Shown piece by piece: positions 11,024 through 61,230 of a DNA stretch of 64,000 nucleotides. Both the position numbers and the translations under genes were made by a program. Every line of letters starts with the position of its first letter. Positions within the stretch are counted from its first letter, which is position 1. Source of the DNA: a virus; the IMG/VR virus record IMGVR_UViG_3300000103_000003, positions 11,643 through 75,642 of that record; one strand, written 5' to 3'. The notes under the pieces are model-generated. The model had not been told where the DNA came from. It worked only from the letters and a program-made list of their open reading frames with translations, and did not search any database.

Positions 11024-11057
11024 TTAAGAATAGTTATTTTTGAGCCTATACGGTTAT
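11024..11057 (-). promoter_or_regulatory. Putative phage late promoter for the tape measure operon
   Basis: TAACCGT-N16-CTATTCTTAA, about 24 nt upstream of the ATG and just downstream of a terminator; upstream box only partly matches. Confidence 0.65.
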
Positions 11058-11058
11058 T

Positions 11059-11105
11059 AAAAAGCCCCATATCAAACTTTATGTCCAATATGGGGCTTTT
11101 ATTTT
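11059..11105. terminator. Intrinsic terminator
   Basis: AAAAGCCCCATAT...ATATGGGGCTTTT stem with A/T tails. Confidence 0.85.
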
Positions 11106-11292
11106 ATTGCATTTTTTGAGCCATGCCAACGTTTATCATTTCTGCATGAAGCCAGTCAGCATCATTTATCATTCGTGCAAGTTCTTCATCGTCTAATTCG
11201 TTTATATTTATGGCTGGAAAATAATACCGGACTAAAATTAATTTTTTCCGTAATATTTCTGTTTCACTTATTCTCCAGCCTTTTATAAATTT
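11104..11292 (-). CDS. -1 frame extension of the tail assembly chaperone (gpGT-like C-terminus)
   Basis: Open frame FIKGWRISETEILRKKL...MAQKMQ with no start of its own; entered through the A_AAT_TTA slippery site. Confidence 0.75.
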   Translation of the reverse strand, partial: KFIKGWRISETEILRKKLILVRYYFPAININELDDEELARMINDADWLHAEMINVGMAQKMQ

Positions 11293-11633
11293 ACAAGAGT
11301 AGATTGACGAGAGCCGATAATAGCGTGTACTTGTGCCATTGTTCCATACAAAAATACAGAATCGTCGTCGATAAGTTCTTTGTCGCCATCCAAGAAACAT
11401 TCCTGTGCCAATACTTTCACAGCTTGCACCGCATCTTTTGCAGACATAGTCATATACTTAGAGAACGCCGGAAGTGCTGGTTGTGCAAAGTACCCTATGT
11501 ACAATTCTTTTTCGTCGCCTTCTTCTCCAAAAACTACAATAGGGAATACCCTACGGCATTTTTTCGCTTCTTTAATTTTCGCTGCTTTTGCTTTAATTTC
11601 TTCTAATTGCTTTAGACTTAATTCTTTTTCCAT
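11283..11633 (-). CDS. Tail assembly chaperone (gpG-like)
   Basis: 116 aa between tail tube and tape measure; ends in a slippery heptamer. Confidence 0.85.
   Translation of the reverse strand: MEKELSLKQLEEIKAKAAKIKEAKKCRRVFPIVVFGEEGDEKELYIGYFAQPALPAFSKYMTMSAKDAVQAVKVLAQECFLDGDKELIDDDSVFLYGTMAQVHAIIGSRQSTLVNL
11286..11292 (-). other. Programmed -1 ribosomal frameshift site A_AAT_TTA
   Basis: In-frame X_XXY_YYZ heptamer directly before the TAA stop. Confidence 0.75.
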
Positions 11634-11670
11634 GTCGTTTTGTGTTTAAAAATTATTAATAATTACTCAT

Positions 11671-11703
11671 TTAAGAATAGGTATTTCCCACATAAAAAGT
11701 TTA
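11671..11703 (-). promoter_or_regulatory. Putative phage late promoter for the chaperone
   Basis: TAAACTTT-N15-CTATTCTTAA downstream of the tube terminator. Confidence 0.7.
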
Positions 11704-11710
11704 TAAAAAT

Positions 11711-11742
11711 AAAAAAGGAGAAGCGTTTTAAACTTCTCCTTT
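11711..11742 (-). terminator. Intrinsic terminator after tail tube
   Basis: AAAGGAGAAG-loop-CTTCTCCTTTTTT on the minus strand. Confidence 0.8.
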
Positions 11743-11750
11743 ATATGATA

Positions 11751-12203
11751 TTAAAGTATCGAACTTGCATCAATCGGCTCAATAGCACCCGGATTCAATG
11801 GAATCTCGGATACAAGGTTTGTGTCGTCTTGATTAGCGTCCAACCCGTCTTCACTAAAAATACACCTACGAAGAGCCGTAGTGATAGTTTTACCATCTTC
11901 TGGGTGATTGTATGCTATAATCAAATCAAACTCACCTAAGCCCTCCAAAGTGCCATCAGGAGACAGCCTCTGTAAAGTAACCTGTGCATTATAATCTAAT
12001 GAGATAGAAGCAGTTGGAGTTATATTACCAAATCCACGTGATTGCGGATGTGCGCCTACACCATAATTCATTTCAATTTTTCTGGAACGGTTCCACTTAA
12101 TCGCTTGAATACCCATGATAGGTTCACCAACAATATTGGAGAACTGAAACTCAATCATAGACCAGTCATAAGCACGACCATTAATAAGAGTTGTATTTGC
12201 CAT
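11751..12203 (-). CDS. Tail tube protein
   Basis: 150 aa, LINGRAYDWSMIE start, RGFGNITPTASISL; follows the sheath. Confidence 0.85.
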   Translation of the reverse strand: MANTTLINGRAYDWSMIEFQFSNIVGEPIMGIQAIKWNRSRKIEMNYGVGAHPQSRGFGNITPTASISLDYNAQVTLQRLSPDGTLEGLGEFDLIIAYNHPEDGKTITTALRRCIFSEDGLDANQDDTNLVSEIPLNPGAIEPIDASSIL

Positions 12204-12216
12204 TTCGTATTAATTA

Positions 12217-13509
12217 TTATCTGGGTGAGCCTAATGCCGCTGTCGCTATTGAAACAGCAAAACCTTCTTCAACCTCAATAAAACTTGCAACCCCTTTAGG
12301 TATTAAGCGATACTGGATTTTCAAGGTGTCAGTTTCCAATAAGTTCTGGTTCGGCGGTATATTTACAACAAATCCTGAAATCTCACCGTTATTCTGCATC
12401 TGTTCCAAAATATTTGTAACAAGTGCTTTGAATACCTTCTGTGTAGCAGTTGACAGCTGACCGTTAGACGGGTCAACATCAATCGGGCTATTCAAACGTG
12501 GCAATAATACCTTACGGATTTCCCTACGAGATTTATCAATAGTACGATTACGATTAATCATTCTGAAGTCTCCAGTAGAACATGTTTGGTCTTTAGAAAC
12601 GAATGTACCATCATAATCAGTAAATTTGCGTGGGAATATATATCCTTTGTCTGATATTTCATCCAGCTGTGCTTCAGCAATAGATTCATAAGGCAAATTG
12701 GAAACAAATTCTCCAGCTGCTATTGTTAAATCACCAAATCCAAATGCAACAGAGTTCATTGCACCACCGATAAGGTTAAATTTACCAACCCATGCTATTG
12801 ATTCGCCTACACCTGCAATAGCAGTTGTTGCTAAAGCTGCTCCAACCCAGCCAACTGATTCATGGTCTGGACGCAATAATTGAATATCTCGAACCAAACG
12901 AGTGTTACCTTGTCCTATAAATACAGATACACGAGGATAATCACCCAACAGTATTGACGGCATTGCAGTCATAGAAGTTGTTACCATATCAGCTTCAATA
13001 CCAGCTGTATTAGCCGACAAGAAAATTGATAATGGCTGGTGTTTATCAGCCAGTGCCTTCCCAATGTTGTTAAGGTCAGGGATAAGGTTGATTGTATAAG
13101 GGTCTCCGGGGATTCCTGTGTCAGTCCACAATTTTTGTGGTGTCCACACAGCTACTTGCCTAATTGCGCCTTGTGCTACACGTTGTAACTGGTGTAATGC
13201 TTCAAAATTAGCAGAACAATCAGAAAACATGATATACAAAGAGCCACTTGGAAATAAACGGAAAAACTCTGAAATATGTAAATGCGGTAATCCTGATTCG
13301 TAAGGGTTATCCGCTGGGTCAGCACTATAAGGTGTAACCCCCAATTCTTCAGCTTGTCTTAATGAAAAAATCTGAAAGACATCATTTAATGACGTAGTTC
13401 CCGGTGCTACGGGAACATCAAATAACAAACCGGAGATATAATCCAGCCCTGCTATTGGTGTCCTTAAATTGCCATCAGTTCTAATAAACGAGACTTTTGG
13501 TAGTGGCAT
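12217..13509 (-). CDS. Contractile tail sheath protein (DUF2586-like)
   Basis: LPKVSFIRTDGNL start; C-terminal NRTIDKSRR...GEISGFVVNI...LIPKGVA...IEVEEGF sheath signature. Confidence 0.9.
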   Translation of the reverse strand: MPLPKVSFIRTDGNLRTPIAGLDYISGLLFDVPVAPGTTSLNDVFQIFSLRQAEELGVTPYSADPADNPYESGLPHLHISEFFRLFPSGSLYIMFSDCSANFEALHQLQRVAQGAIRQVAVWTPQKLWTDTGIPGDPYTINLIPDLNNIGKALADKHQPLSIFLSANTAGIEADMVTTSMTAMPSILLGDYPRVSVFIGQGNTRLVRDIQLLRPDHESVGWVGAALATTAIAGVGESIAWVGKFNLIGGAMNSVAFGFGDLTIAAGEFVSNLPYESIAEAQLDEISDKGYIFPRKFTDYDGTFVSKDQTCSTGDFRMINRNRTIDKSRREIRKVLLPRLNSPIDVDPSNGQLSTATQKVFKALVTNILEQMQNNGEISGFVVNIPPNQNLLETDTLKIQYRLIPKGVASFIEVEEGFAVSIATAALGSPR

Positions 13510-13515
13510 TGTTTT

Positions 13516-13908
13516 TTACTTTTTAAAATAAGGGTTTTTGAATTTTACGGCTTCTGGATTCAACTTGTATTCCTTAGTATAGGTACAACCTTTAGTTGAA
13601 ATCCATAAATATTCGTAATTTGGAAATCTCTTCAAAATAGCATCCGCAGTTTTATTTAATTCTGCTTCAGCTTTGGATACAGGAGTTTCTTCTTTCGGAG
13701 CCTCCGGTGTTTTTGCTTCCGGTTTCTCTTCTACCTTCACTTCCGGTTTCTCTTCGGGCTTAACTTCTTCTACCTTTTCAGGTGTTTCAGTGACAGGAGT
13801 TTCTTCTTTCGGAGCCTCCGGTGTTACTGGTGTTTCTACCTTAGTTTCTTCTTGTGTTGGTACTACTTTTTCTTCTCCTTCTGTTGCTGTTGCTTTTGTA
13901 CGTGCCAT
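13516..13908 (-). CDS. Low-complexity Glu/Pro/Lys/Thr-rich protein with a short folded C-terminus
   Basis: ORF between capsid and sheath; repeated TPEAPKEETPV. Confidence 0.8.
   Translation of the reverse strand: MARTKATATEGEEKVVPTQEETKVETPVTPEAPKEETPVTETPEKVEEVKPEEKPEVKVEEKPEAKTPEAPKEETPVSKAEAELNKTADAILKRFPNYEYLWISTKGCTYTKEYKLNPEAVKFKNPYFKK
13679..13825. repeat. 33-bp direct repeat inside the CDS
   Basis: ACAGGAGTTTCTTCTTTCGGAGCCTCCGGTGTT at 13679-13711 and 13793-13825. Confidence 0.9.
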
Positions 13909-13937
13909 ATTAATTTTTTATTGATGATTTTAATAAC

Positions 13938-13967
13938 AAAAAGGGTGAGGCGTCGCCCCACCCCTTT
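13938..13967 (-). terminator. Intrinsic terminator after the capsid gene
   Basis: GGGTGGGGC-GAC-GCCTCACCC followed by a T-tract. Confidence 0.75.
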
Positions 13968-13999
13968 CAAAAATATATTCTAAACAACAAAACAGGTTA

Positions 14000-15001
14000 T
14001 TAGCTGTAAGCTGTCCAAACGATAATATCTCCCGGCAATACGATATTTACGTCCATCTTCATTCTCATTTGGAAGAAGTACAACTCGGAGTTGTTCTGAA
14101 GTTGGTCGATACGTACTACGTTTTCATCGTTTGCATAGTCAACACCCATCCACAAGTTAGAATCACGACCAGTCGTGAAGTTACCAAGAACGATTGTTTG
14201 AGGAGGAACGCCTACTATCGGAATTACACGCTTACCTTTGAATTTGTAAGTGTTAATTTGTGTGTTATCGGTATATTTGAAACCCTGTGAGGTCAAATAC
14301 TTGTCATATAAATCCCACAATTCCCAATCCATTACATAAGTAATGTCGCGATTACGCAAACGAGCCGGAGTTGAGTGCCACATAGCATAAAGAGCAGATT
14401 CTACATCTGCACCAGTAGTCATCGGAGCAGTTCCAGCTACAATAGCTGTATCACCCGGAACAGCAGCGTTTATATTGTCAATAAGACGCTTCATAACACC
14501 ATCATAGTACTTAAATGTACCTGTACCCATTTGAGGTGCGCCAGCAGGAGGAGTAATACCTCCAGCACCACCACCCTTAGTGGACTGCCAGATAGCTGTA
14601 CCGATGTGTTCGTTTTTCTTTTCCATCAACTGACGAAGCATTTTCGCCTGAAGAGCAGGGTCTAATTCCCTGAATACCAAATTGCCTTCGGGTTGCCACT
14701 GTTTCCAATATACTTCAAAATCACGAGGATTAAATTCCAAGTAAACCATGAAGTCTTGTGGTTCCAGATAACGTTCTGTGAATGAATACTGACCTTTAGA
14801 ATCAGTCGGGCTAACCGGAGTAGGAATATTGTCCTGAATTATTTCATCCAGTTCAATACGAGGAATGACATACTTAAACTGAATACCAGATTTCACATAA
14901 ATCAATCCCTGACGATAAGTGTCATTACCTTGCACGGTATACGCTAACAGGTCATCAAGAACCTCACCGGCATAGGTATTTTGTAAAAATTGTACTGACA
15001 T
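14000..15001 (-). CDS. Major capsid protein
   Basis: 333 aa directly after protease/scaffold; NTYAGEVL start and ELYFFQMRMKMDVNIVLP end. Confidence 0.85.
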   Translation of the reverse strand: MSVQFLQNTYAGEVLDDLLAYTVQGNDTYRQGLIYVKSGIQFKYVIPRIELDEIIQDNIPTPVSPTDSKGQYSFTERYLEPQDFMVYLEFNPRDFEVYWKQWQPEGNLVFRELDPALQAKMLRQLMEKKNEHIGTAIWQSTKGGGAGGITPPAGAPQMGTGTFKYYDGVMKRLIDNINAAVPGDTAIVAGTAPMTTGADVESALYAMWHSTPARLRNRDITYVMDWELWDLYDKYLTSQGFKYTDNTQINTYKFKGKRVIPIVGVPPQTIVLGNFTTGRDSNLWMGVDYANDENVVRIDQLQNNSELYFFQMRMKMDVNIVLPGDIIVWTAYS

Positions 15002-15007
15002 TGTTTA

Positions 15008-15544
15008 TTAAATTTTATTGAATTTGAAATTATCACCAACAACCGCTTTCACTTTTGCAGCTGCTTCTTCGACTGAAGTCTCCTTTTTTGCCTGAAGGTT
15101 TGCAGGGTTGTTTTCAATCTTTGCAGAAATTTTTTCCGGGGCTGGGATAGATTCCAATGTAGCCTGTACATGTTCGTAGTTTGTACGTGCCATAGTTACC
15201 CACGATTCTTTACTTTCCGCTTTGATTTTCTTCGCATCAATCGCTCCCTGAACCAGAGTTTCGATTGCATTTTCTTTAGCAGATGCTTCCGCTGCTTCAA
15301 ACACACTAAGTTTTTCCTTAGCTGCATTTAATTCGGCAGTTGCATTTTCCAGTGCTGTAATGTTACCAGTGTTAGTGATAACCAGCGCATCATACTTCGC
15401 TGTTACTGCTGTGACTTCAGCCGAAACTCTTTCAAAGTCTCCCTTTACCTTGACTAATCCCGGCAAAGCAGCGATAACGTCCTCAATTTTAGCATCAGCT
15501 TTCAGCCCTAAGTGCGCTGAAATAATACCAAGTTCTTTTTCCAT
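15008..15544 (-). CDS. Putative nested in-frame scaffolding protein (MEKELG..., 178 aa)
   Basis: Internal ATG with an A-rich initiation region and a complete late-promoter motif about 62 nt upstream. Confidence 0.6.
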   Translation of the reverse strand: MEKELGIISAHLGLKADAKIEDVIAALPGLVKVKGDFERVSAEVTAVTAKYDALVITNTGNITALENATAELNAAKEKLSVFEAAEASAKENAIETLVQGAIDAKKIKAESKESWVTMARTNYEHVQATLESIPAPEKISAKIENNPANLQAKKETSVEEAAAKVKAVVGDNFKFNKI

Positions 15545-16315
15545 CGTTACTGTCTTTAAATTATTGTGATTATTATTAACTTCAGCTTTCGGCTGATTCT
15601 CTTGTTTAAGAATAGCGTTTTTACCAGATGATTGTTTAAATTCATCTATCTCGGCTAACACCTTATCAAATAAAATTCGAGTTTCTTTCGCATCCGCTGA
15701 TGCTTCAATCTCTACACCATTAGAAACAATAGCTGCTTCTTGCTTTTTAGTCTTGATTACATTTTTTGCAGGGATAATGTTTTTTGCAACAACATCATTC
15801 GCCTTCATATATGTACCATCAACACCCTCGGCTCCAGCCATAATCGCTTCAACTTCATCTTCTGTAAAACCCCAACGATTAGTATAAATCACTGACATCA
15901 TTGATTTAAACGCATCAATTTGCGCTTTCTCGTCTGCCGTTAATTCATCCTCAATTTTAGGATTAAATGGGTTATGTACCATTAATATGGAATAGTCGGT
16001 CATTTTGGATTCTTTACCAGCCGCCCATATAATGCTTCCCATAGATGCACACAAACCAACATTAACACAAGTCGTTGGAATAGGGCAATTCGCTATAACA
16101 GCGTATGTACTCATTCCATATAATACCGACCCACCTTCACTATTAATCTGTATTTCAATCGAAGAAGGTTGTATATAATCCTGAATGTACAAAAACTCAT
16201 AATTGAACTCTGCACAATTCCATTGATTTACACCTCCAAAAAATCGAACCACGGCTGGCTTACCTCTTTCGACTGAACCAACAACATGTTTAAAATTCTT
16301 AATTTCTTCCATCAT
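15008..16315 (-). CDS. ClpP-type prohead protease fused to a scaffolding domain
   Basis: INSEGGSV, CASMGS (catalytic Ser) and MVHNP (His) motifs; coiled-coil C-terminal half. Confidence 0.9.
   Translation of the reverse strand: MMEEIKNFKHVVGSVERGKPAVVRFFGGVNQWNCAEFNYEFLYIQDYIQPSSIEIQINSEGGSVLYGMSTYAVIANCPIPTTCVNVGLCASMGSIIWAAGKESKMTDYSILMVHNPFNPKIEDELTADEKAQIDAFKSMMSVIYTNRWGFTEDEVEAIMAGAEGVDGTYMKANDVVAKNIIPAKNVIKTKKQEAAIVSNGVEIEASADAKETRILFDKVLAEIDEFKQSSGKNAILKQENQPKAEVNNNHNNLKTVTMEKELGIISAHLGLKADAKIEDVIAALPGLVKVKGDFERVSAEVTAVTAKYDALVITNTGNITALENATAELNAAKEKLSVFEAAEASAKENAIETLVQGAIDAKKIKAESKESWVTMARTNYEHVQATLESIPAPEKISAKIENNPANLQAKKETSVEEAAAKVKAVVGDNFKFNKI
15606..15638 (-). promoter_or_regulatory. 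Putative internal late promoter (scaffold plus capsid)
   Basis: TAAACAAT-N15-CTATTCTTAA inside the protease gene. Confidence 0.65.
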
Positions 16316-16324
16316 ATATAATTA

Positions 16325-17089: not shown

Positions 17090-17092
17090 TTC

Positions 17093-17596: not shown

Positions 17597-17597
17597 C

Positions 17598-18458
17598 TTA
17601 ATTTAATATTTGCAGTCCTGTATCTTTTTTAATCTGTGAAAAAATTCCACCGATTATTCCCCACATGTGTGCCGGAATATTAAAATAAGGATGTGTATTA
17701 CCAAAAATTTGACCGCCATTCCACGGCGACACAGTAAATATAGGATTCACCATTCTTTCAGCATACGATAAAGCGTCTGCCGGGGTTTGTGATAACAAAT
17801 AAGTATCATCAGAAACATCCAAATAACAGCGGCACGCCCAATCTATTGGAGGTATAAGCCATCTCGGAAACTCTGATTTAAGATATGATATACCATGCAA
17901 AGGACGATGTGATTCACGTACACGTTCGTCGCCTTGTGTATAGTATGTAATTACTGGGTTGTTAATAACACCTCCCCAGCCTAATGCCATTGCCATTGCA
18001 AAATACGCATCTGCGTCTTCTACATTAGCATAAACATTATTTTGTAAATTAATATTGCCTACAAATGCGTCTTCAAATTCTGCATCATCCAGTTCCGAAG
18101 CTATATCATCCAGTTTTTGAAATAACTGAAATTGTGAAGCTATTCCGAATGATAAAAGATTATCTAAAACACTGACTAACATTGCTCTTTCTTGCATTTC
18201 ATCGTATGTTAGCATAGCAACTTCTTGATTATTAAGGTATTTAATCGTTTCTTTTAACGACTTACCATAACCTTGAAAGCCAGCATTAGCCACACCAAAT
18301 GCACGAAGTTTCATAATTTCCATCCGAACCACATAAGGAACATCGCGTCTCTTGAAGTCTTCGAGTAATGTCATCAGCAAACTAAGAAGAATTGCATAAT
18401 TATCCTTAGTTTGCTCATTTATATTTGCTTCCTGTCTTGTGTCTGGCTGAATAAGCAT
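17598..18458 (-). CDS. Phage minor head protein (Mu gpF/gp30-like)
   Basis: YYTQGDERVRESH..LHG...PPIDWACRC motif. Confidence 0.9.
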   Translation of the reverse strand: MLIQPDTRQEANINEQTKDNYAILLSLLMTLLEDFKRRDVPYVVRMEIMKLRAFGVANAGFQGYGKSLKETIKYLNNQEVAMLTYDEMQERAMLVSVLDNLLSFGIASQFQLFQKLDDIASELDDAEFEDAFVGNINLQNNVYANVEDADAYFAMAMALGWGGVINNPVITYYTQGDERVRESHRPLHGISYLKSEFPRWLIPPIDWACRCYLDVSDDTYLLSQTPADALSYAERMVNPIFTVSPWNGGQIFGNTHPYFNIPAHMWGIIGGIFSQIKKDTGLQILN

Positions 18459-19825
18459 TATTCTTCTGTTTGAGTTGTTTTACCTTCTCCAGCATCTGCT
18501 TTTTCTGTTCTACTACCAGCACTTCCAGCTCCGGTTGAACCATCATTTACATATTGATTCCCCCAAGCCATGCCATCTTTATTAGACATAGCATCTGCCA
18601 TTGCTTTATTTTTCGCTACTTCAGATTTAGCTTTTGCAAAATTCATCTGGTCTCCAACTTGAATACCAAATGCTCTGTCTATTTCTTCTGGAGAAACCTC
18701 ATAGCTTTGAATCATTACATCGTACAGCTTAATCTTATTGTCTGGAGACATCTCCGCACGATTAGCGTACTTAAATTCAAGGTTTGATTTCGTGATAAAA
18801 CCCATTTGTTTTAGTCTGGGTAGTACTTGTTCATTCATCACGTCTTCAATAAAAGAGCGATAAACTTCTATACGGTCACGATATATTTCTTGATGTGCTG
18901 AAGTTGAACCAACATAACTTTGTGTTTCTCCAGCTAAAGATTCAGACCCTAAAATAAGATTTGAAACCTCTTTATTAGCCATTTCTACCAACGTCGTATA
19001 AATACGTTCCGAATTTGACGTTGTAATAGCCTTAATTTCGATTGAATCATCTGGAGGGGTTACAAGTACCCTGCGGCTTGCTGCGTCCGCTATTTGACGC
19101 GCTAATTTGTTTTTAGCGTCATTTGAATCATCATTAGTCTTCCCGTGTATAATAGGAACCGCATACGTGTGTGCGAAATTAATAAAATTAGCCCATGTAA
19201 ATTTCTTTGCCAGCACTAACGGTGTAGTTGCCGCAAATAAGCCAATATCCTCGCAGTTTATCAATATGTAATTGTCCTGATACGGAAATCTGGAAATATC
19301 CCAGTATTTTGATACATCTCCCTGACGCTCCAGAATGATTTCTTGGTCTGGGAGAATATTTCTACGCTCTATAACATTTATCTCCTTCAATCGACCAGTT
19401 ACCGGGTCAACCTCCGGGTTTAATTCAAATCCAGTATAACCAAAAAGTTTTGCTTCAGCAATACCTTTAATAAGTTTTCCGAACTGAATACCCTGAATTT
19501 TCTGGGATTCTTCAAAATCCTTTTTGTATATTCCTCCCTCAACAGGATAAGCAAGCATATACCGCTCTCCTACAATCTGGGAAAATAATGTCTCTAAACA
19601 TCCACGCAAATGTGCATCCTGTTGTAAGCACGCCTCATAAAGATTTATCAGTCCTGAACGGTCATCCAATATGGATAATTGTAAAGCCGTATCCGACCGC
19701 ATCGTTTTGTAGCGGTTATGACGCTCTATCTCCAAAATATAATTCTGGATAGTGCGTTTGCTTGTCCGAAAGATAGCATGTAGCATATCTACGGGGATTG
19801 TTCCATTTGTGATTTCTTTTGACAT
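18458..19825 (-). CDS. Portal protein (Mu gp29 / DUF935-like)
   Basis: DAHLRGCL, FAHTYAVPIIHGK, NKEVSNLILG and SAHQEI motifs. Confidence 0.9.
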   Translation of the reverse strand: MSKEITNGTIPVDMLHAIFRTSKRTIQNYILEIERHNRYKTMRSDTALQLSILDDRSGLINLYEACLQQDAHLRGCLETLFSQIVGERYMLAYPVEGGIYKKDFEESQKIQGIQFGKLIKGIAEAKLFGYTGFELNPEVDPVTGRLKEINVIERRNILPDQEIILERQGDVSKYWDISRFPYQDNYILINCEDIGLFAATTPLVLAKKFTWANFINFAHTYAVPIIHGKTNDDSNDAKNKLARQIADAASRRVLVTPPDDSIEIKAITTSNSERIYTTLVEMANKEVSNLILGSESLAGETQSYVGSTSAHQEIYRDRIEVYRSFIEDVMNEQVLPRLKQMGFITKSNLEFKYANRAEMSPDNKIKLYDVMIQSYEVSPEEIDRAFGIQVGDQMNFAKAKSEVAKNKAMADAMSNKDGMAWGNQYVNDGSTGAGSAGSRTEKADAGEGKTTQTEE

Positions 19826-19848
19826 GTCTGTTTTGAAATTGGGTACAT

Positions 19849-19882
19849 TGAAGAATAGCTATTTTCGACATACGAAAGTTTG
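19849..19882 (-). promoter_or_regulatory. Putative phage late promoter for the portal operon
   Basis: CAAACTTT-N16-CTATTCTTCA, about 24 nt upstream of the portal ATG. Confidence 0.7.
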
Positions 19883-20448
19883 ATTTTCGGTCGGCGGCGA
19901 GGTGTGAAGTTTTTCAAAAATCCCTCGCGTGTATATACATTATATTTATTAGAGATACTTTCCAGTAAAAAAAAGAAAAAATTTCCCTACTCGAAAGATA
20001 AGAAAAAGGAGAGAGGCTTCGCCTCGAAACTTTTTTGTTCTTTCGCTTTGAAAATAAACTCTTTTAAAAACGGAAAGGAAAAAGTCCAGAAAAAACGCAA
20101 GTTTTTTTTGGTATCTTTTTTCTTGGGGGTCAATAGGGGGTTTACCCCCTGTTTTAGAATTTTTAATCTTTATATTTATTAAACCTAAAATTATATTTAG
20201 ATAAACACGATAAGTGAGGGGGAGTACCCCCTTCACGAACCCCAAGACCCTCCTAAAAAGGTTCCCGTGACATCGGGGAAACCTCGTACAATACCTAATA
20301 GTCGATTTTAACAATTAGAAGTTTAAAAATATGTGTTAAACTTTGTTAAATCGCCCTTACAGATACCTGTGGAGCCGTTTTTTTGTGATTTTTGTCATTA
20401 ACATTTATTAACGCGTTCTGGGGCTTGTAGGGCACTTTTGCCTGTTTT

Positions 20449-20716: not shown

Positions 20717-20777
20717 AATGACACTCCAGTATGTCAATAAGCATATTATATGTCATTATAAAAATAATATCAAAAAT

Positions 20778-20810: not shown

Positions 20811-20838
20811 CAGTCTAATTATAAAAAAGAATATATAT

Positions 20839-24710: not shown

Positions 24711-24759
24711 AAAAAGTGGGGTTGCCGTTTGGTAATTCCACTTTTTTGTTGTATGTTTG
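24711..24759 (+). promoter_or_regulatory. Terminator hairpin overlapping a primary-sigma promoter for ligA
   Basis: Stem AAAAAGTGGGGTTGCC/GGTAATTCCACTTTTT; TTTG 24728 - N20 - TATGTTTG 24752. Confidence 0.7.
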
Positions 24760-24783: not shown

Positions 24784-26724
24784 ATGATTCCAAGTATTAT
24801 CAAAAAACTAAAAGCGTATAATCACGCTTACAGAACAGGAGAAAGCATCGTTTCGGATGCCGAGTATGACGCGTTACTGGAAGAGTTACGCAAACTTAGT
24901 CCAGAACATCCGTATCTTACGCGTGTGGAGCCAACGCCGACCCCGGACGACCGCAAAGAAAAATTGCCTATGATTATGAGAAGTTTGAATAAACTGAAAA
25001 GTTTTGAAGAATTTCAAGCGTGGGTGAATAAGAATAGAATATCTGAAGACGCAGAAGTTTATACACTTCCAAAGCTGGATGGTATTTCTTTGCTGGAAGA
25101 CGAATTTAATGGTTGTGCGTGGACGCGTGGAAGTGAGGATAATATCGGCATGAGAAGCGACAAACACATCCAGTATATGAATAATGGCATTTGTACTAAA
25201 TTTCATTATTCTGGTGGGGAAGCCATTATTACCAATGAAAATTGGAAAGAGCATTTTGAAGGCAAACGCAACCCAGCTTCTGGGGAGATATTCAAAACAA
25301 AACGCGGAACAGTCGCCGGGATATTCGCATCAGATGCGGATAAATTCAAAGATTTTCTTCCTTTTGTAAGTTATATCCGATATAATGCGTTTGTCGGCGA
25401 AAGCGACGCGATGTACACGTATGATATATTTGAACTAAATAATATCAACCCGGTTCAGATTCCAGCTCATTGCTGCAAAATCAAAGATTTGACATCAGAC
25501 AAATTAAATGAGCTGTATTTCAGATGGAATAGTTTATTCGATTGTGACGGATTGGTAATATGCCTAAATGACAAACGCGAATGGAAACGCTTAGGTCGCC
25601 ACGCAACGTCTGGCAACCCGTTGTATTCTGTTGCTTACAAAGCAGATTTTGAACAACGTTTTCAGACTAAGTGTGTGGCTGTAAATGCGCGTGTGTCGAA
25701 GAATGGATATTTACGTCCGACTGTGGAGATTGAACCAGTAATGATTGATGGCGCAAAAATTGATAATCCAACTGGTAACAATTTCAAATTTGTTTATGAT
25801 AACAATATCGCGCCGGGAACAGAATTAACTGTCATCAGGTCTGGAAGTGTAATACCAAAGATTGTTGGGTTTGGTAATTTCAATGGTGATGCAGTTGTTA
25901 GCCTCATGGATAAATTTGCTTTATGTCCAGCATGTGAAAGTTCTACCAAATGGAATGAAACAATGACTGACCTTGTTTGTTGTCATCGTTATTGCCCCGG
26001 AAAAGAGCTGGCAAAAATTATTTATTTCTTTTCAGTTCTGGAATTTGAGGATTTTGGAGAAACAACAATCGAAACTGTTTATAATTATCTCAAAGAGACA
26101 AATTCAACAGCATTATTGACTGATTTCTTAAATTTGGAAACGCGTAAATTAACGCCTATCCCCGGAATTGGTAAATCAATAGCCAATAGCATCAACGACC
26201 AGCTGAATGGATTATACAATAATCCAACTTCGTTAGTAACGCTTATGAAGGCTCTGGATACATTTGAAGGCATTGGCGACAGCAAAGGACAACTTATTAT
26301 TGACAATTTTTCAGATGATATGATTGAAAAGTTAATTGCTCATACTGCTGATGTTCGTGATGTTTCTGACGAACTAAATTGTGTTAAAGGATTAGGAGAA
26401 AAAACCGTTCAGTCTTTCATAAATGGCTGGGGTTCATTTACATCACTATTAAAGAACACACAATTACCTTTTAAAATATGTAAAACAGAAACCTCTAAAA
26501 GTGTAAAGTACAAAGGTCTAAGTGTATGTTTCTCCGGCGTTCGTGATTCAGAACTGGAAAAAATTCTTTCCAGTAATGGAGGAGTAATTGTTTCCAATGT
26601 TTCTAAGAAAACAACTCATTTGGTTACTCTCGACCCAGAAGGCGCAAGCGGTAAGATTGTTAAAGCGAAAGAATTAGGTACAACCATTATTTCACTGGCA
26701 GATGCAAAAAATTTGTGGAACTAA
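24784..26724 (+). CDS. ligA: NAD-dependent DNA ligase
   Basis: YR.GESIVSDAEYD, KLDG adenylation motif, DGLVI, RSGSVIP, zinc finger, HhH repeats, BRCT (VSKKTTHLV). Confidence 0.95.
   Translation: MIPSIIKKLKAYNHAYRTGESIVSDAEYDALLEELRKLSPEHPYLTRVEPTPTPDDRKEKLPMIMRSLNKLKSFEEFQAWVNKNRISEDAEVYTLPKLDGISLLEDEFNGCAWTRGSEDNIGMRSDKHIQYMNNGICTKFHYSGGEAIITNENWKEHFEGKRNPASGEIFKTKRGTVAGIFASDADKFKDFLPFVSYIRYNAFVGESDAMYTYDIFELNNINPVQIPAHCCKIKDLTSDKLNELYFRWNSLFDCDGLVICLNDKREWKRLGRHATSGNPLYSVAYKADFEQRFQTKCVAVNARVSKNGYLRPTVEIEPVMIDGAKIDNPTGNNFKFVYDNNIAPGTELTVIRSGSVIPKIVGFGNFNGDAVVSLMDKFALCPACESSTKWNETMTDLVCCHRYCPGKELAKIIYFFSVLEFEDFGETTIETVYNYLKETNSTALLTDFLNLETRKLTPIPGIGKSIANSINDQLNGLYNNPTSLVTLMKALDTFEGIGDSKGQLIIDNFSDDMIEKLIAHTADVRDVSDELNCVKGLGEKTVQSFINGWGSFTSLLKNTQLPFKICKTETSKSVKYKGLSVCFSGVRDSELEKILSSNGGVIVSNVSKKTTHLVTLDPEGASGKIVKAKELGTTIISLADAKNLWN
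25029..25061 (-). promoter_or_regulatory. Late-promoter motif antisense within ligA
   Basis: TAAACTTC-N16-CTATTCTTA, a full bipartite match. Confidence 0.5.
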
Positions 26725-33958: not shown

Positions 33959-33990
33959 CAAATATACGGAATATTTCGGACATTACCAAA
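33959..33990 (-). promoter_or_regulatory. Bacteroidota primary-sigma promoter
   Basis: TTTG-N20-TATATTTG on the minus strand. Confidence 0.8.
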
Positions 33991-43938: not shown

Positions 43939-43969
43939 TTTGCAGCACTGGTAATTAATTTTACCTTTG
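43939..43969 (+). promoter_or_regulatory. Primary-sigma promoter
   Basis: TTTG-N19-TACCTTTG. Confidence 0.8.
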
Positions 43970-47311: not shown

Positions 47312-47343
47312 TTTGCAGGTCTGGGAAATAATTCGTAGGTTTG
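47312..47343 (+). promoter_or_regulatory. Primary-sigma promoter
   Basis: TTTG-N20-TAGGTTTG. Confidence 0.8.
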
Positions 47344-52249: not shown

Positions 52250-52250
52250 T

Positions 52251-54342: not shown

Positions 54343-54343
54343 T

Positions 54344-54472: not shown

Positions 54473-54477
54473 CACTC

Positions 54478-54622: not shown

Positions 54623-54645
54623 TTAATAATTAAAATGAATTTAAA

Positions 54646-55879: not shown

Positions 55880-55890
55880 ATTAATAAACG

Positions 55891-56154
55891 ATGAAGAAAT
55901 TATTTAAGAACATTATGGTCGGCTTAGGGCTGACGGGAGCCGGAGTATTTGGTATTGCTTTGGTGGTGTTTATTGTAGCTGTGATTTTCGGTGCAGGATT
56001 CGCGTTCAGCGGACTTGTTATCTGGGGAACATGCTCTGTTATTTGCTGGCTGATTCCGGCATTAATTCCGTACATAGGAATATCGTATGGAGTTAGCTGT
56101 GGAATATCAGTATGCTTATGGCTTATTAGGGGCTTAATTAGGTCTATTTTCTAA
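55891..56154 (+). CDS. Multi-pass small membrane protein
   Basis: Almost entirely hydrophobic. Confidence 0.7.
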   Translation: MKKLFKNIMVGLGLTGAGVFGIALVVFIVAVIFGAGFAFSGLVIWGTCSVICWLIPALIPYIGISYGVSCGISVCLWLIRGLIRSIF

Positions 56155-56180
56155 ATAGAATTATATCTAAACAACAAACA

Positions 56181-56224
56181 AAAAGGCGTAGACTTTTGCA
56201 ATTAAGCATCGGTCTACGCCTTTA
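56181..56224. terminator. Bidirectional intrinsic terminator
   Basis: AAAAGGCGTAGAC/GTCTACGCCTTT between convergent genes. Confidence 0.85.
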
Positions 56225-56229
56225 TTATT

Positions 56230-57321: not shown

Positions 57322-57327
57322 TGTTAT

Positions 57328-58914
57328 TTAATAATTTCCCCAAACTGGAGTAACATCAGCTGTAAATATCTGTACATTATCTGTATAAGAACGCTCGGTA
57401 AACTTCCTAAAACAATCCTTTAGTAAAGTACAACATGCCAGTTCTAAACAGTCATTCAAATGACCGAACTTCTCATACTTAACTTTAGCGTCGGCATCCC
57501 ATACCTTCTTCTTTTCCTTAGAACCATCCGGGTTCTTTTGTTGGTAAATCAAATCATCAATAAGTTTAAAGCACTTAGAATCTACCTCGATAGACCAACC
57601 TTCAAACTCATTCTCAAATATTTCATTTATCCATTCAACTCTGGTGGCTTGTGCTGGGGCTTTCTCCAGTAATTTTCTGGTAGGCATAAACCCAGCAAGG
57701 TTATTCAGAATAATCGAGTAATTCGTAACGTCTTCGGCTACCAGTGTGGATTTTTGATTTCCTGCTGGGTCTCCAGTAATGATTACGCTTCCTTCGTGTT
57801 CCATTTTTAAAAGAGCCTTATTAATCATCGCTGAATGTGCTGGCGTGTTTGCCTGTTTATTCTTTGGTGTTCCTAATAGTTCTTTCAAGACGTATAGTCT
57901 TCTCTTCTCCCAGTCTATCTGAATAAGTAAACAACTCATATATGGATATGTATTGAAGTCGAAAGATAATATTGCAGGTCTGTAATTATCATAAATACTC
58001 TCAAACAAATCATCTTTAAGATGTTTGGTATTGTCGAATCCTTTATAACAAACTAAATCAGACGCTTCAACATACCTCCAGTCTCCATACAATAAACGAC
58101 GCTTTTCTTTTTTATTCATTCGATTTAACGAACTTTCATACGTCGCTCTAAATGTCGGGTCTGGATTATCAAACAAACTAAACGGAACATAATAATCTCC
58201 GGTTTTACATACCTTATCCTGTCCATGTTCATCCAGAACAAACCTATCACGTACCCATGTGAGATTAGGGTTACAAGTCAATAACATTTTAGGAACTTTC
58301 AGTGTTTCCCATGTCATCCAACGAATACGAGAAAATAACGTTTCCACTGCGGTTTCGTCCAACTCGTCACACTCGTCACAGAACACTGCACCAATTTCCA
58401 AACCTCCTAAACGCGACCATGTGGGGTCTTGGGGGCTGGGTGATAATTCCTTCAATAGTACTTCCGAACCATTCCAGAAAGTTATCAGTCCTAATATGTC
58501 ATTGTGTGTATAATGTACGTCACGTTCTAAGCCCATCTGTTTGATGATTTTCCAGAACGTAACCATTGTACTCTCCCGGAGTACTTTGAGTGTCTTACGT
58601 GCGATTACAGACCTAAATCCAGACCACCGTAAAGAACATTCAATAATCCAGTTACAACCGATATAAGATTTTCCTCCTCCGGCTGAACCTCCACCCAATA
58701 TCATTTGAGGGATATTCTCGCTCTCACAACTGCTACACTGAAATTTGTATAGCTCTTCACCATTCTTATCGTAACCACGAATTACTTTAATTACTTCTCC
58801 ACCACAAAAAGGACAATTCTCATGCAATGCTTGCCAAAGTTCGTATTGTTTTTCTGATGGCTTGAAGGTGTAATTAAACTGCTTCGGTGGCTGTAACTGT
58901 ATCCGTTTCCCCAT
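57328..58914 (-). CDS. Terminase large subunit
   Basis: Walker A GGSAGGGKS, Walker B FCDECDE, LTCNP coupling motif, nuclease SFDFN, GDPAG, GHLND. Confidence 0.95.
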   Translation of the reverse strand: MGKRIQLQPPKQFNYTFKPSEKQYELWQALHENCPFCGGEVIKVIRGYDKNGEELYKFQCSSCESENIPQMILGGGSAGGGKSYIGCNWIIECSLRWSGFRSVIARKTLKVLRESTMVTFWKIIKQMGLERDVHYTHNDILGLITFWNGSEVLLKELSPSPQDPTWSRLGGLEIGAVFCDECDELDETAVETLFSRIRWMTWETLKVPKMLLTCNPNLTWVRDRFVLDEHGQDKVCKTGDYYVPFSLFDNPDPTFRATYESSLNRMNKKEKRRLLYGDWRYVEASDLVCYKGFDNTKHLKDDLFESIYDNYRPAILSFDFNTYPYMSCLLIQIDWEKRRLYVLKELLGTPKNKQANTPAHSAMINKALLKMEHEGSVIITGDPAGNQKSTLVAEDVTNYSIILNNLAGFMPTRKLLEKAPAQATRVEWINEIFENEFEGWSIEVDSKCFKLIDDLIYQQKNPDGSKEKKKVWDADAKVKYEKFGHLNDCLELACCTLLKDCFRKFTERSYTDNVQIFTADVTPVWGNY

Positions 58915-59350
58915 TATAAATATATCCTTCTGGCAGTTTAGCCTTTAAATTTTCAATTCTGGATTTCAGTCTTTTAATTGTGTGAATGATGTTATTAATA
59001 TGTTGCTCTTGTGTAACAACTTTTTCTACATCATCAGCCCCAAATTCAACACCTTCTTTCTTAGCCCATTTTTTTAACAGAGCCATATAATTCCTTCCCG
59101 GAACATGCTCTTCTAACGGTACAAATTCCCGTTTATAATCCAACTCAAAACCTTTGACGGTTTTATGACTTACCTTTTTAGCTAAAACCTTAGCTACGGT
59201 ACTGCGGTCATATCTACATGCTTTACACATGAAGTATATTGAAGCCCAGACCCTTATAATCCTTCCGTTCTTAATCTGAACGATTGCTTTTCTTGGTTTT
59301 CTCCCTTTACCTGTATATTCGGGAACACCTTTGTTGTCTTTTCTTTTCAT
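58874..59350 (-). CDS. NUMOD1/HTH-like basic DNA-binding protein (candidate small terminase)
   Basis: KAIVQIKNGRIIRVWASI...DRSTVAKVL...KGFEL; directly upstream of the large terminase. Confidence 0.55.
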   Translation of the reverse strand: MKRKDNKGVPEYTGKGRKPRKAIVQIKNGRIIRVWASIYFMCKACRYDRSTVAKVLAKKVSHKTVKGFELDYKREFVPLEEHVPGRNYMALLKKWAKKEGVEFGADDVEKVVTQEQHINNIIHTIKRLKSRIENLKAKLPEGYIYNGETDTVTATEAV

Positions 59351-59373
59351 CTTTTTAATATTAAGTTTTACCT

Positions 59374-59407
59374 TTAAGAATAGATGAAAATATGTGGTAA
59401 ATGTTTA
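59374..59407 (-). promoter_or_regulatory. Putative phage late promoter for the terminase operon
   Basis: TAAACATT-N16-CTATTCTTAA, about 24 nt upstream of the ATG. Confidence 0.7.
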
Positions 59408-59451
59408 AACGTTCATCAATCTGGTGTGTTCATTTGAACTGAACATAACAA

Positions 59452-59488
59452 AAAAGTGAACAGAGAATTGCTCCCCTGCTCACTTCAA
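59452..59488 (-). terminator. Intrinsic terminator
   Basis: AAGTGAGCAGGG...CTCTGTTCACTTTTTT on the minus strand. Confidence 0.7.
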
Positions 59489-59507
59489 AATTTAAAACTA
59501 TGATATG

Positions 59508-59732
59508 TTATTCCTGAAATAATTGTTCCCAAAGTTTAACGCCAATCAAAAATGGCATAAACACCCCAGCTACAAAGCCATTCAATATTGCTTCTTTTTT
59601 CAATATCCCTTTTTTGCACAATACTGTGTCAAATTCCGCATAACCAAACCCGGTTGCAATACAGATATAAATTCCTATAAAAAATCCCATAATAATTATT
59701 GTTTTTAATGAATAATTTGTGTCATAATTCAT
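59508..59732 (-). CDS. Small membrane protein
   Basis: Two hydrophobic segments. Confidence 0.65.
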   Translation of the reverse strand: MNYDTNYSLKTIIIMGFFIGIYICIATGFGYAEFDTVLCKKGILKKEAILNGFVAGVFMPFLIGVKLWEQLFQE

Positions 59733-60030
59733 ATTTACTGTTTAATTCGCTTTCGTATATACTTTCAAATTCACTTTCGTCATCTCTTTGTGATGTTCTT
59801 TTAGATGATTCTTCAAGTTCATTTGCGATTTCAGCCATCCAGTCATAAAACCCTAATGCTAATTTCCTCCAAGTGTTAGGAGGAGTATTTGAATTTTCTA
59901 ATTCTTTTCTGGAAAGAGCATGAAACACTTCCTGTGCTTTATTGATATTATCATCTTTAAAGACAATGTCTCGGATGGCTTCAAGAGTACTTTGGTCGTA
60001 ATATAGCTGTAAAACTGAATCTTTAGTCAT
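59722..60030 (-). CDS. Acidic hypothetical protein
   Basis: ORF track; downstream of a promoter. Confidence 0.75.
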   Translation of the reverse strand: MTKDSVLQLYYDQSTLEAIRDIVFKDDNINKAQEVFHALSRKELENSNTPPNTWRKLALGFYDWMAEIANELEESSKRTSQRDDESEFESIYESELNSKYEL

Positions 60031-60058
60031 AATTTTCTTTTTTAATTAATACTGGCTG

Positions 60059-60090
60059 CAAATATACAAAAAATATATGATATAGCCAAA
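60059..60090 (-). promoter_or_regulatory. Primary-sigma promoter
   Basis: TTTG-N20-TATATTTG. Confidence 0.8.
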
Positions 60091-60243
60091 TATAATTGAA
60101 GAAAAAATACAAAAAATAACCGCGCATCTCTCGACGGGCGGTTATCACATTATTAAACTTTTAAATTAAATTTTATAATAAAACAAAAAAACATCCCGTC
60201 TCACGACGATATTAAACAACCTTTTTTATGAAAAACTCTTTAG

Positions 60244-60315
60244 TTGCGAGCTGGGGAATCGAACCCCATACCATAAGATAATGAGCCTTACATGCAACCG
60301 GTACACCTGCTCGCG
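60244..60315 (-). tRNA. tRNA-Met (CAT), initiator-like C1:A72 mismatch, atypical anticodon arm
   Basis: CGCGAGC/GCTCGCA acceptor, TGGGG-TTCGATT-CCCCA T arm, TAAGG-CTCATTA-TCTTA anticodon arm; CCA not encoded. Confidence 0.88.
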
Positions 60316-60318
60316 ATA

Positions 60319-60519
60319 TTATTCTTTTATATACAATCGACAATGACAAACATCATTTTCACGATAATCTGAACATGGACAATTTTTATCTTTAGAGTTA
60401 TTATGACATGGACATTCACCTTTACATCGTGCAATACCTCTAAGGATGCCATTGACAACCTTATCATTAGGGTTCAACACCCAGCCGGGTTTACGATAAA
60501 TGTAGAACATATCTGTCAT
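60319..60519 (-). CDS. Ferredoxin-thioredoxin reductase catalytic-subunit-like protein
   Basis: LNPND..V..I...CPC...CPC...CHC..Y, complete motif set. Confidence 0.85.
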   Translation of the reverse strand: MTDMFYIYRKPGWVLNPNDKVVNGILRGIARCKGECPCHNNSKDKNCPCSDYRENDVCHCRLYIKE

Positions 60520-60650
60520 AATTTTATATTAGTTTCGATAAGCCCCCAGCAGTTTCTAATGTTACTTACTGGAGGCGAGGGTCACAGGCTCCACGCCTAT
60601 GAGGGGTTTCTTAACCTTAGACTTTGAATCAGGGAGAATAAGGTATTGGG

Positions 60651-60722
60651 TTGGTTTAGAGGGATTTGAACCCACAGCCTCCACCGTATCAGGGTGTTGC
60701 TCCACCGTTGAGCTATAAACCA
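60651..60722 (-). tRNA. tRNA-Ile (GAT)
   Basis: TGGTTTA/TAAACCA acceptor, GCTC/GAGC D stem, CTGATAC loop, GGTTCAAATCC T arm. Confidence 0.92.
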
Positions 60723-60793
60723 GTCGCAGAGCGCGAGTACATTCGCCGTGTGTCGCGTTCCGAACCCAGTTCTCTTTGGAGAATGGGAGATAT

Positions 60794-60836
60794 AAAAAAC
60801 CCAGTTATTTGAGCATTGTTAAGAGGCTTTCCGGGT
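60794..60836 (-). terminator. Terminator-like stem enclosing a boxA-like sequence
   Basis: ACCCGG-AAAGCCTCTTAACAATGCTCAAATAA-CTGGGT-TTTTT. Confidence 0.45.
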
Positions 60837-60842
60837 ATGTTG

Positions 60843-60910
60843 TGGGGAAGGAGATTACAACATCTCTCCCAGCGACTTAGGTATTCTAATCGTAATTAGA
60901 CCATTTCCCA
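60843..60910 (-). ncRNA. Cloverleaf-like non-tRNA element
   Basis: GGGAA/TTCCC closing stem with three hairpins (TCTAAT/ATTAGA, CCTA/TGGG, GAGAT/ATCTC); no canonical T or anticodon loop. Confidence 0.45.
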
Positions 60911-61005
60911 ATTTAAAATGACTAATACACAGTTCTTCGGGATGTATATTAGTTCTATACTCGAAGTTCCTTACTGGTGTGCTATTTGAGCGTTAAGGAA
61001 CATAT

Positions 61006-61079
61006 TGGGGAGGATAACGGATTCAAACCGCTATTTGTGCCGAAATCCAGCACCGTCCTATCAATTAGACGAATCCCCC
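61006..61079 (-). tRNA. tRNA-like gene with an aberrant anticodon loop (undetermined or pseudo)
   Basis: GGGGGAT/ATCCTCC acceptor, GTC-TAATTGATAG-GAC D arm, AGCGG-TTTGAAT-CCGTT T arm; anticodon loop GGATTTC lacks U33 and purine 37. Confidence 0.7.
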
Positions 61080-61082
61080 AAA

Positions 61083-61137
61083 TAGGGGCAGAACGCCCCC
61101 TAATCTCCGTCTCGGAGAAAAACCGATGACATCGGTT
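61083..61137 (-). ncRNA. Three adjacent short hairpins
   Basis: TAGGGG..CCCCTA, TCTCCG/CGGAGA and AACCGAT/ATCGGTT back to back. Confidence 0.5.
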
Positions 61138-61196
61138 ATGTAAGCTGGCACTGGAAAGGGATGTGACCCCACTATGCTCTTATGCTTTCATCGTAT

Positions 61197-61230
61197 CTAA
61201 GAATAGAGATATTTAATACTGAAAAGTTTA
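61197..61230 (-). promoter_or_regulatory. Putative phage late promoter for the RNA cluster
   Basis: TAAACTTT-N16-CTATTCTTAG. Confidence 0.65.

Follow-up and report, generated by a model that had tools for sequence, protein, structure and literature searches.

Which promoters serve the late genes of a large Bacteroidales phage, and which factor directs RNA polymerase to them, are questions raised by a 64,000-nucleotide (nt) stretch of viral DNA, here referred to as the window, that comprises bases 11643-75642 of one virus record of 106,694 bp (IMG/VR IMGVR_UViG_3300000103_000003). A first-pass annotation of the window had described a repeated two-box motif ahead of several structural genes and attributed it to a regulon of late genes under the control of a sigma factor, activator or polymerase encoded by the phage, adding that no such factor was recognisable in the window. 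This proposal is supported by the analysis presented here: the motif has a layout like that of promoters recognised by extracytoplasmic function (ECF) sigma factors, and the genome encodes an ECF-like sigma factor, syntenic in related phages, that lies outside the window. It is considered probable, at roughly 80%, that (A/C)AC-N18/19-CTAYTCTT serves this phage and its clade as their late promoter, and that a phage sigma factor, itself driven by host-type promoters, redirects the host RNA polymerase core towards it. The principle of phage-encoded sigma factors is well known, and the motif is solidly supported at the sequence level. That it is paired with the sigma factor is inferred from the layout of the promoter and from the joint occurrence of the two, and both the start sites of transcription and the timing of expression are predictions.

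The genome is that of a Bacteroidales phage of ~107 kb, a member of a large clade of gut phages and prophages. It has a G+C content (GC) of 36%, a CheckV completeness of 96% and a coding density of ~90%. The structural genes are carried on the minus strand, whereas early and some middle genes occupy the plus strand, and a long replication module, again on the minus strand, extends past the right end of the window. In what follows coordinates are those of the window unless they are designated as genome positions.

The two-box motif

In its refined form the motif reads AAC-N18/19-CTAYTCTT and is matched nine times in the 106,694-bp genome, always on the minus strand, which is the late-gene strand. 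In 100 first-order Markov simulations the mean number of matches was 0.24 and the maximum two. The repeated motif of the first-pass annotation is therefore borne out, both in number and in its confinement to one strand, by the comparison with random positions and strands that the annotation had proposed, and all six sites that it had listed were recovered in place. Its upstream box, YAAACWWT, is specific to this genome, and the -35 core that holds across the clade is AAC. The copy ahead of the tape measure gene, which had been thought to possess a weaker upstream box, is in fact canonical, with AAC at the 19-nt spacing.

The downstream octamer CTATTCTT, taken without the upstream box, is only modestly enriched: the window contains ten copies, all on the minus strand, where 3.4 are expected, and two of 100 shuffles reach ten. 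Over the whole genome there are 13 copies, 12 of them on the minus strand. The spacing between the boxes is more telling. Among 75 boxes pooled from five genomes, AAC is found 18 nt upstream in 16 and 19 nt upstream in 14 (30/75); each of the other spacings between 8 and 30 nt accounts for 0 to 4 boxes. The motif hence has the layout of an ECF-type promoter, an AAC -35 core held at a fixed distance from a short -10 element. A chance or compositional artefact is ruled out by the simulation, the spacing histogram and conservation across genomes.

A tenth site was added in which CAC replaces AAC, and seven of the ten lie between genes in a genome where little sequence is noncoding; the intergenic sites that face genes are positioned 23-47 nt ahead of start codons. 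The first-pass annotation had noted a distance of about 24 nt from box to ATG at three copies. It is exactly 25 nt for the portal gene (site 19851-19880, AAC-N19-CTATTCTT; gene 18458-19825), for the tape measure gene (site 11026-11055, AAC-N19-CTATTCTT; gene 7953-11000) and for a gene of 158 amino acids (aa; 58874-59350) that is followed by the terminase large subunit gene terL (57328-58914; site 59376-59405, AAC-N19-CTATTCTT), and it is 39 nt at the chaperone site. The latter (11673-11701, AAC-N18-CTATTCTT) serves a 116-aa DUF6848 gene (11283-11633) in the position of a tail chaperone. A further site (61199-61228), whose -35 box abuts the stop codon of a 227-aa gene, faces a cluster of noncoding RNAs. 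All of these sites are on the minus strand.

Two sites are located outside the window. One, at genome positions 78561-78589, precedes by 47 nt (box to ATG) a 201-aa TerS-like gene homologous to the annotated small terminase of the cultured phage BS-TP1. The other is the CAC variant (CAC-N18-CTATTCTT, genome position 105459), with an ATG 23 nt downstream; its target is homologous to gp20 of BS-TP1, a protein tied to baseplate J by a structure-alignment note in the record.

The remaining three sites fall within genes. One is embedded in the protease-scaffold gene (15608-15636, minus strand) and is discussed below. Motif scanning also yielded a full match inside a 1318-aa tail gene (1120-1149, minus strand), which may drive the distal tail genes from within or be fortuitous. 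The relatives showed no orthologous site inside the gene, although sites do precede their homologous distal tail genes. The third (25030-25059, minus strand) is antisense within the NAD-dependent ligase gene ligA (24784-26724, plus strand), and its position is not conserved in the three relatives compared in full (G017, G033 and G015). Chance alone is expected to produce 0.24 matches per genome, so that one of the nine could be fortuitous, and one or both of the intragenic matches at 1120 and 25030 may be.

The first-pass annotation had also placed three copies behind intrinsic terminators. Terminator-like hairpins do occur upstream of three sites on the minus strand, one of 11 pairs with a T run adjoining the upstream side of the 11673 promoter (11714-11742) and one of 15 pairs with a T run ~45 nt upstream of the 59376 promoter (59453-59486). 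The third, found by a hairpin scan upstream of the portal promoter (20013-20025), is weak and ~130 nt away.

The RNA cluster behind the 61199 promoter includes a tRNA-Ile (60649-60722) and an Rfam match to the abiF RNA (RF03085; 60799-60835, minus strand) that scores 39.8 bits against a gathering score of 37.

Conservation of the motif among related phages

A megablast search of 8 kb against the phage collection gave no match at the DNA level, and relatives were reached by protein-level searches. Examination of upstream regions of related genomes had been suggested by the first-pass annotation, and the motif proved to be kept: CTAYYCTT lies no more than 200 nt upstream of the portal gene at 77 of 80 related IMG/VR loci whose portal proteins are 54-61% identical. 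When 34 distinct portal-upstream sequences are aligned, information peaks at AAC and at CTAYTCTT only, and the spacer and flanks vary freely.

Three whole relatives with GC of 35, 48 and 56% (G017, G033 and G015) all possess an orthologous site before the portal gene. Other orthologous sites are found at the protease gene in G033 and G015, at the tape measure gene in G033, at distal tail genes in G017 and G033, and before the chaperone, pre-TerL and TerS-like genes in G017. In the cultured Bacteroides phage BS-TP1 (PQ571274.1; host B. salyersiae) CTATTCTT is located 22-25 nt before five gene starts, namely those of the endolysin, the gene preceding terL, the portal, the protease and the tape measure.

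Two further observations concern the form and placement of these sites. The clade defined by portals of 54-61% identity spans genome GC values of 35-56%, and whether the -10 box has T or C at its position 4 goes with GC. Many relatives, G033 (85972-86000), G019, G025, G031, G034 and G035 among them, have a late-type site on the strand opposite to the portal gene. It lies upstream of that gene, always ~2.72 kb away, and is followed 27 nt later by a small helix-turn-helix-like open reading frame (ORF); the present genome has no such opposite-strand site ~2.72 kb upstream of its portal gene.

The phage sigma factor

The first-pass annotation had recommended a search of the remaining genome for a sigma-like gene. 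When the whole genome was searched with Pfam sigma models, a single ORF of 200 aa was obtained (genome 90262-90864, minus strand), which agrees with the earlier statement that no factor is recognisable in the window. The protein matches Sigma70_r2 at residues 26-83 and r4_2 from residue 131, with no match to region 3. With only sigma2 and sigma4 domains in ~200 aa, it has the domain composition of a group 4 (ECF) sigma factor. It also matches PHROG 1740 ('RNA polymerase sigma factor'), and all of its 21 NCBIfam matches are of the ECF type, each falling under its equivalog cut-off. The best sequence match in the PDB is Mycobacterium tuberculosis SigH. An AlphaFold model built with 34 homologs (mean pLDDT, the predicted local distance difference test score, 78) comprises two helical domains joined by a disordered linker (residues 92-117), and among the Foldseek PDB matches listed for this model the top 29 are all ECF sigma factors. 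The 34 homologs share ~40-50% identity overall, yet segments within their r2 and r4 domains are invariant, which fits an unchanging promoter.

The gene is situated in the replication module, in the order SbcD-SbcC-RuvC-110 aa-sigma-195 aa-DnaB-primase-split DnaE, and the gene order around it is largely kept in G017, G033 and BS-TP1; the GenBank record of the latter annotates gp7 as a sigma factor. Both immediate neighbours overlap the sigma gene, the 195-aa gene (genome 89694-90281, minus strand) on its downstream side and the 110-aa gene (genome 90831-91163, minus strand) on its upstream side. The 195-aa product has a C-terminal cysteine cluster. Homologs of the 195-aa gene are found beside sigma in G017, G033 and BS-TP1 (gp6), and a homolog of the 110-aa gene in G017. 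The two are candidate sigma cofactors or anti-sigma factors. An assignment of the 195-aa product as an anti-sigma factor or a helicase domain found no support: the longer DnaB of G015 does not contain it, and it has no family match. No RNA polymerase gene was seen among the ~30 annotated proteins (large proteins of the replication module and late proteins), RNA polymerase Pfam models not having been run on the six-frame genome.

Late sites versus host-type promoters

Host-type promoters of the form TTTG-N17-23-TAnnTTTG precede ligA as well as a number of early and middle genes; the ATG follows the -7 box by 19-30 nt. The example at ligA (TTTG-N20-TAnnTTTG; 24728-24759, plus strand) ends 24 nt before the gene, and similar promoters are located at 33959-33990 (minus), 43939-43969 (plus), 47312-47343 (plus), 60059-60090 (minus) and 62660-62691 (minus). 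In all, 17 -7 boxes lie 8-60 nt before a start codon on the same strand. These cluster in the modules for early functions and replication, whereas the 26-kb structural block has a single one and the terminal tail block has none. Judged by this distribution, the late motif and the host-type promoters hardly ever share a module, so that the earlier claim that the late motif is unlike the TTTG/TAnnTTTG promoters of early and middle genes largely holds. None of the ten late sites has TTTG in its box, and in this respect they are not primary-sigma promoters.

The host-type promoters of the middle genes share an extended, phage-specific form, approximately TTTGG-N2-(T/A)(G/A)TC...T-rich...GTATRTTTG, that goes beyond the generic -33/-7 consensus (24728-24759, 33959-33990, 60059-60090 and 62660-62691; genome 97033-97064 and 101265-101296). 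This form may define a middle class of its own or be bound by a phage factor.

The same contrast bears on the best placed of three rival explanations, all of which are much less likely than the sigma cascade. In this first one the late site is a composite, and a phage late activator other than a sigma factor binds the AAC box and recruits the host primary-sigma holoenzyme to a poor -7 element. Activator-dependent late promoters are common in phages, for example those of the RinA/ArpU families (PMC3753634). The sequence TATTCTTA resembles TAnnTTTG at four of six fixed positions, part of CTATTCTTA resembles the Bacteroidetes -7 consensus (consensus from PMC7366714), and the -35 box of BS-TP1 is variable. 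Against such an arrangement, 34 distinct portal promoters keep CTAYTCTT and never drift to TTTG, a sign of selection for a distinct specificity, while the fixed 18/19-nt spacing and the AAC core fit the geometry of sigma2 and sigma4. The sigma factor is, moreover, the sole match to a transcription factor among the annotated proteins, a set that leaves most small genes unscanned. A composite site is accordingly regarded as improbable.

Co-occurrence of sigma factor and motif

The sigma factor and the motif tend to be found together. Each of the five relatives tested first (~95-113 kb) encodes the sigma factor and carries 5-9 strand-biased motif matches, where a control pattern has 0-2. Of the 34 records in a second set, 19 encode the sigma factor, and all 19 have the motif. 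Prophages of the clade reside in genomes of Bacteroides, Phocaeicola, Alistipes, Tannerella and Dysgonomonas and in metagenome-assembled genomes of Rikenellaceae and Dysgonomonadaceae. A complete Alistipes sp. genome contains 17 motif matches, of which 15 fall in two prophages (at 1.30-1.41 Mb and at 2.47-2.55 Mb), both of which encode a sigma homologue (47% and 43% identity); the control pattern has eight matches genome-wide. The motif is on this evidence a property of the phages and not of the host chromosome. For Bacteroides phage DAC19 the sigma-like gene is ~27% identical and the motif is not enriched, occurring five times against two for the control with a wider spacing allowed, so that this phage is uninformative on the link between sigma factor and motif.

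Late promoters that are identical letter by letter, including that of the portal gene, are present in prophages of Alistipes sp. i18-0019-D1, Bacteroides ndongoniae and Phocaeicola coprophilus, genomes that are assigned to the Rikenellaceae and Bacteroidaceae. Such identity across families points to phages with a very broad host range, to recent transfer or to mis-binning.

In the second rival explanation an alternative ECF sigma factor of the host reads the motif and the phage sigma has another role, as in middle-gene expression or host takeover. The AAC -35 core is generic to ECF promoters, and the motif is found without a sigma gene in some truncated records and in the degraded P. coprophilus prophage. 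Dozens of ECF sigma factors are available in Bacteroidales (PMC7366714). Yet the motif is invariant across hosts in the Bacteroidaceae, Rikenellaceae, Tannerellaceae and Dysgonomonadaceae with GC from 35 to 56%, which would call for one host sigma factor of identical specificity throughout. Only two of the 17 Alistipes matches lie outside prophages, not above the control pattern; the best host matches to the phage sigma, ECF factors from two other host genomes, are 26-31% identical; and the phage sigma is present in every sufficiently long relative. This alternative is regarded as improbable, marginally more so than the composite site.

A proposed late sigma cascade and the points against it

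In the sigma cascade favoured here as the most economical reading, the host primary-sigma holoenzyme would transcribe the early and middle genes, the replication module included, from TTTG/TAnnTTTG promoters, and the replication module would yield the 200-aa ECF-like sigma factor. This factor would bind the host RNA polymerase core, with its sigma4 domain reading AAC and its sigma2 domain reading and opening CTAYTCTT. Transcription is predicted to start a few nucleotides past the box, leaving A-rich leaders of ~15-25 nt. About ten late promoters would thereby be driven, serving the TerS-like gene, the 158-aa gene with terL, the RNA cluster, and the portal and head genes, along with the units for the tail chaperone, the tape measure, and the baseplate and tail genes. 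The terminator hairpins ahead of several promoters would insulate these units from one another.

A role of the motif in RNA, as a processing site, translation enhancer or leader element ahead of late ORFs, would suit its rather constant placement 23-25 nt before several ATGs, but it is very improbable given that the motif is bipartite with a sequence-free spacer of fixed length, as is typical of a two-domain protein on DNA, that its distance to the ATG ranges from 14 to 63 nt across sites and genomes, and that one copy precedes a noncoding RNA cluster and several come right after terminators.

A number of findings nevertheless weigh against the sigma cascade. The score of the phage sigma with the sigma70-ECF model TIGR02937 is 41.3 bits, just below the cut-off of 42.9. 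The -10 elements of ECF promoters are typically of the CGT/GTC type, and the box CTAYTCTT is unlike them. No late motif precedes the sigma gene near genome 90.3-97 kb, so that the factor does not appear to be autoregulated; the nearest same-strand promoters upstream of it are of the host type (genome 97033 and 101265), and the two facts together fit a cascade rather than a feedback loop. As for an anti-sigma factor, the 195-aa and 110-aa neighbours have no Pfam or PHROG match, and the Atlas places them in unnamed viral clusters only; either may still be a novel anti-sigma factor or cofactor. In its lack of a recognisable anti-sigma and of autoregulation, its unusual -10 box and its sub-threshold score, the system departs from a textbook ECF regulon.

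Other difficulties arise from the relatives. The -35 box in BS-TP1 is loose, being AAC, CAC or none that is obvious, and the -10 box may accordingly carry most of the specificity. Covariation between sigma factor and motif was sought and rejected: the variable position 4 is T at 36% GC and C at 48-56%, tracking genome composition and not sigma subclade, and hence it offers no usable covariation. Five large records have the motif and no detectable sigma gene; in each case the closest longer relative has its sigma gene 40-69 kb from the portal gene, on the side where the shorter record ends, and these records were probably truncated before the syntenic position of sigma. Finally, a Phocaeicola coprophilus prophage appears to be without ~60 kb that includes the sigma region and has kept the motif.

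A probable internal promoter and a putative nested scaffold protein

The site embedded in the protease-scaffold gene (15008-16315, minus strand) occupies codons 227-237, past the Clp protease domain (aa 36-160) and ahead of the scaffold-like part, which spans aa 244-426. An in-frame ATG at codon 258, 63 nt past the internal box, opens a putative nested scaffold ORF of 178 aa (15008-15544, minus strand). The internal site is also present in G033 and G015 (codons 217-229), with in-frame ATGs 18 and 27 nt after the box and nested N-termini homologous to that opened here. In BS-TP1 a box with one mismatch (CTATTCGT) occupies the internal position and is followed by an in-frame start with a homologous N-terminus; in G017 the nested in-frame start is kept without a recognisable box.

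A nested scaffold product is suggested by analogy, and phage Mu I/Z and lambda C/Nu3 provide analogues. In the sigma cascade the internal unit would raise the level of this product and of the major capsid gene. The conserved internal promoter suggests a transcriptional route to a nested scaffold protein.

A more ambitious version of the sigma cascade can be formulated in which the sigma factor and its promoters form a self-contained pair, orthogonal to the host, across several Bacteroidales families, perhaps aided by the 110-aa and 195-aa genes, whose products would, as phiEco32 gp79 does, act as cofactors or inhibitors of the host sigma, and in which the embedded promoter sets the scaffold-to-protease ratio by transcription and not by translation alone. 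In its entirety this version is speculative and rather unlikely.

Other features of the genome

Among the structural proteins are a portal of the Mu-like type, a ClpP-type protease with a fused C-terminus that is scaffold-like, what is probably the capsid protein, and a DUF2586 protein. The identities that the first-pass annotation had given to the portal, terminase, tape measure and protease genes are upheld. Further late genes could be identified as those for the tape measure, TerL, baseplate and tail fibres. The replication module encodes a helicase, a primase, a split DnaE, SbcCD, RuvC, an exonuclease and a ribonucleotide reductase. Gene calls other than those from tool outputs were made with a simple ORF picker.

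The alpha subunit of DNA polymerase III (DnaE) is encoded in two ORFs of 586 and 724 aa (genome 81600-86119; 69958-74477 in window numbering, past the right end of the window). The 586-aa ORF comprises the PHP domain and the start of the NTPase domain, and the 724-aa ORF the remaining NTPase domain, the finger and the HHH domain. They are separated by ~340 nt and an 86-aa ORF, and the two-ORF layout is shared with G017. This arrangement could be the remnant of an intein or intron, or it could represent a genuinely split polymerase.

Significance

Transcription in phages of Bacteroidota is essentially uncharted beyond the crAss-like phages. In the literature that was searched, neither the motif nor a sigma-dependent mode of late transcription was found described for Bacteroides phages; the paper on BS-TP1 mentions neither sigma factors nor promoters (PMC12694917), and as of 2020 no recognition motif was known for any alternative ECF sigma factor of B. 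thetaiotaomicron (PMC7366714). What the present analysis offers is a concrete candidate pair of sigma factor and promoter from a widespread clade of gut Bacteroidales phages that are large and often temperate and include a cultured member, BS-TP1. With the motif as a guide, late operons in hundreds of metagenomic contigs can be annotated straight from their sequence, and prophage-specific DNA can be recognised within host genomes. If the pair should be orthogonal to host promoters, it could possibly serve as a tight expression switch for Bacteroides engineering.

Comparison with known systems

The closest experimentally defined analogue, likened by its architecture and not by sequence comparison, is gp36 of phage phiEco32. 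This protein directs the host core polymerase to middle and late promoters together with its cofactor gp79 (PMC12276001), and inference of its promoters has been described (PMC4331800). As in the phage considered here, a phage sigma factor of two domains, sigma2-like and sigma4-like, binds the host core (a prediction in our case) and acts at few, highly conserved, phage-specific promoters, and the early genes are transcribed from host-type promoters (PMC12276001, PMC4331800). The gp36 promoters differ in being centred on AATGTA at about -11.5 and in needing gp79, which also displaces the host sigma. In the present phage, by comparison, the motif is AAC-N18/19-CTAYTCTT, the Bacteroidales host has -33/-7 primary promoters, and no gp79-like factor was identified.

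Late transcription in phages T4 (gp55/gp33/gp45) and SPO1 (gp33/gp34) likewise relies on a phage sigma that is made with the replication genes and switches the host core to late promoters, at which a -10-like octamer dominates recognition (PMC2988020, PMC13401047). The late promoters of T4 are without a -35 element, gp55 is without a sigma4 domain, and activation needs the sliding clamp. The sites described here, with their clear -35 AAC box, and the full sigma4 (r4_2) domain of the phage sigma set this system apart from the T4 type.

Cellular ECF (group 4) sigma factors such as Escherichia coli RpoE and M. tuberculosis SigH share with the phage protein the sigma2-linker-sigma4 arrangement and the AAC -35 core, and the ~18-nt spacing from AAC to the -10 element matches that of RpoE and SigH promoters. 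They are distinguished from the phage sigma, which is borne in a replication module, has no adjacent recognisable anti-sigma and lacks an autoregulatory promoter.

The promoters of the Bacteroidetes primary sigma factor (TTTG at -33, TAnnTTTG at -7) operate in the same hosts and share with the late sites short, A-rich leaders without a Shine-Dalgarno sequence, these leaders being predicted for the phage. The late motif differs from them in both of its boxes, and the two kinds of promoter are nearly mutually exclusive in their location in the genome.

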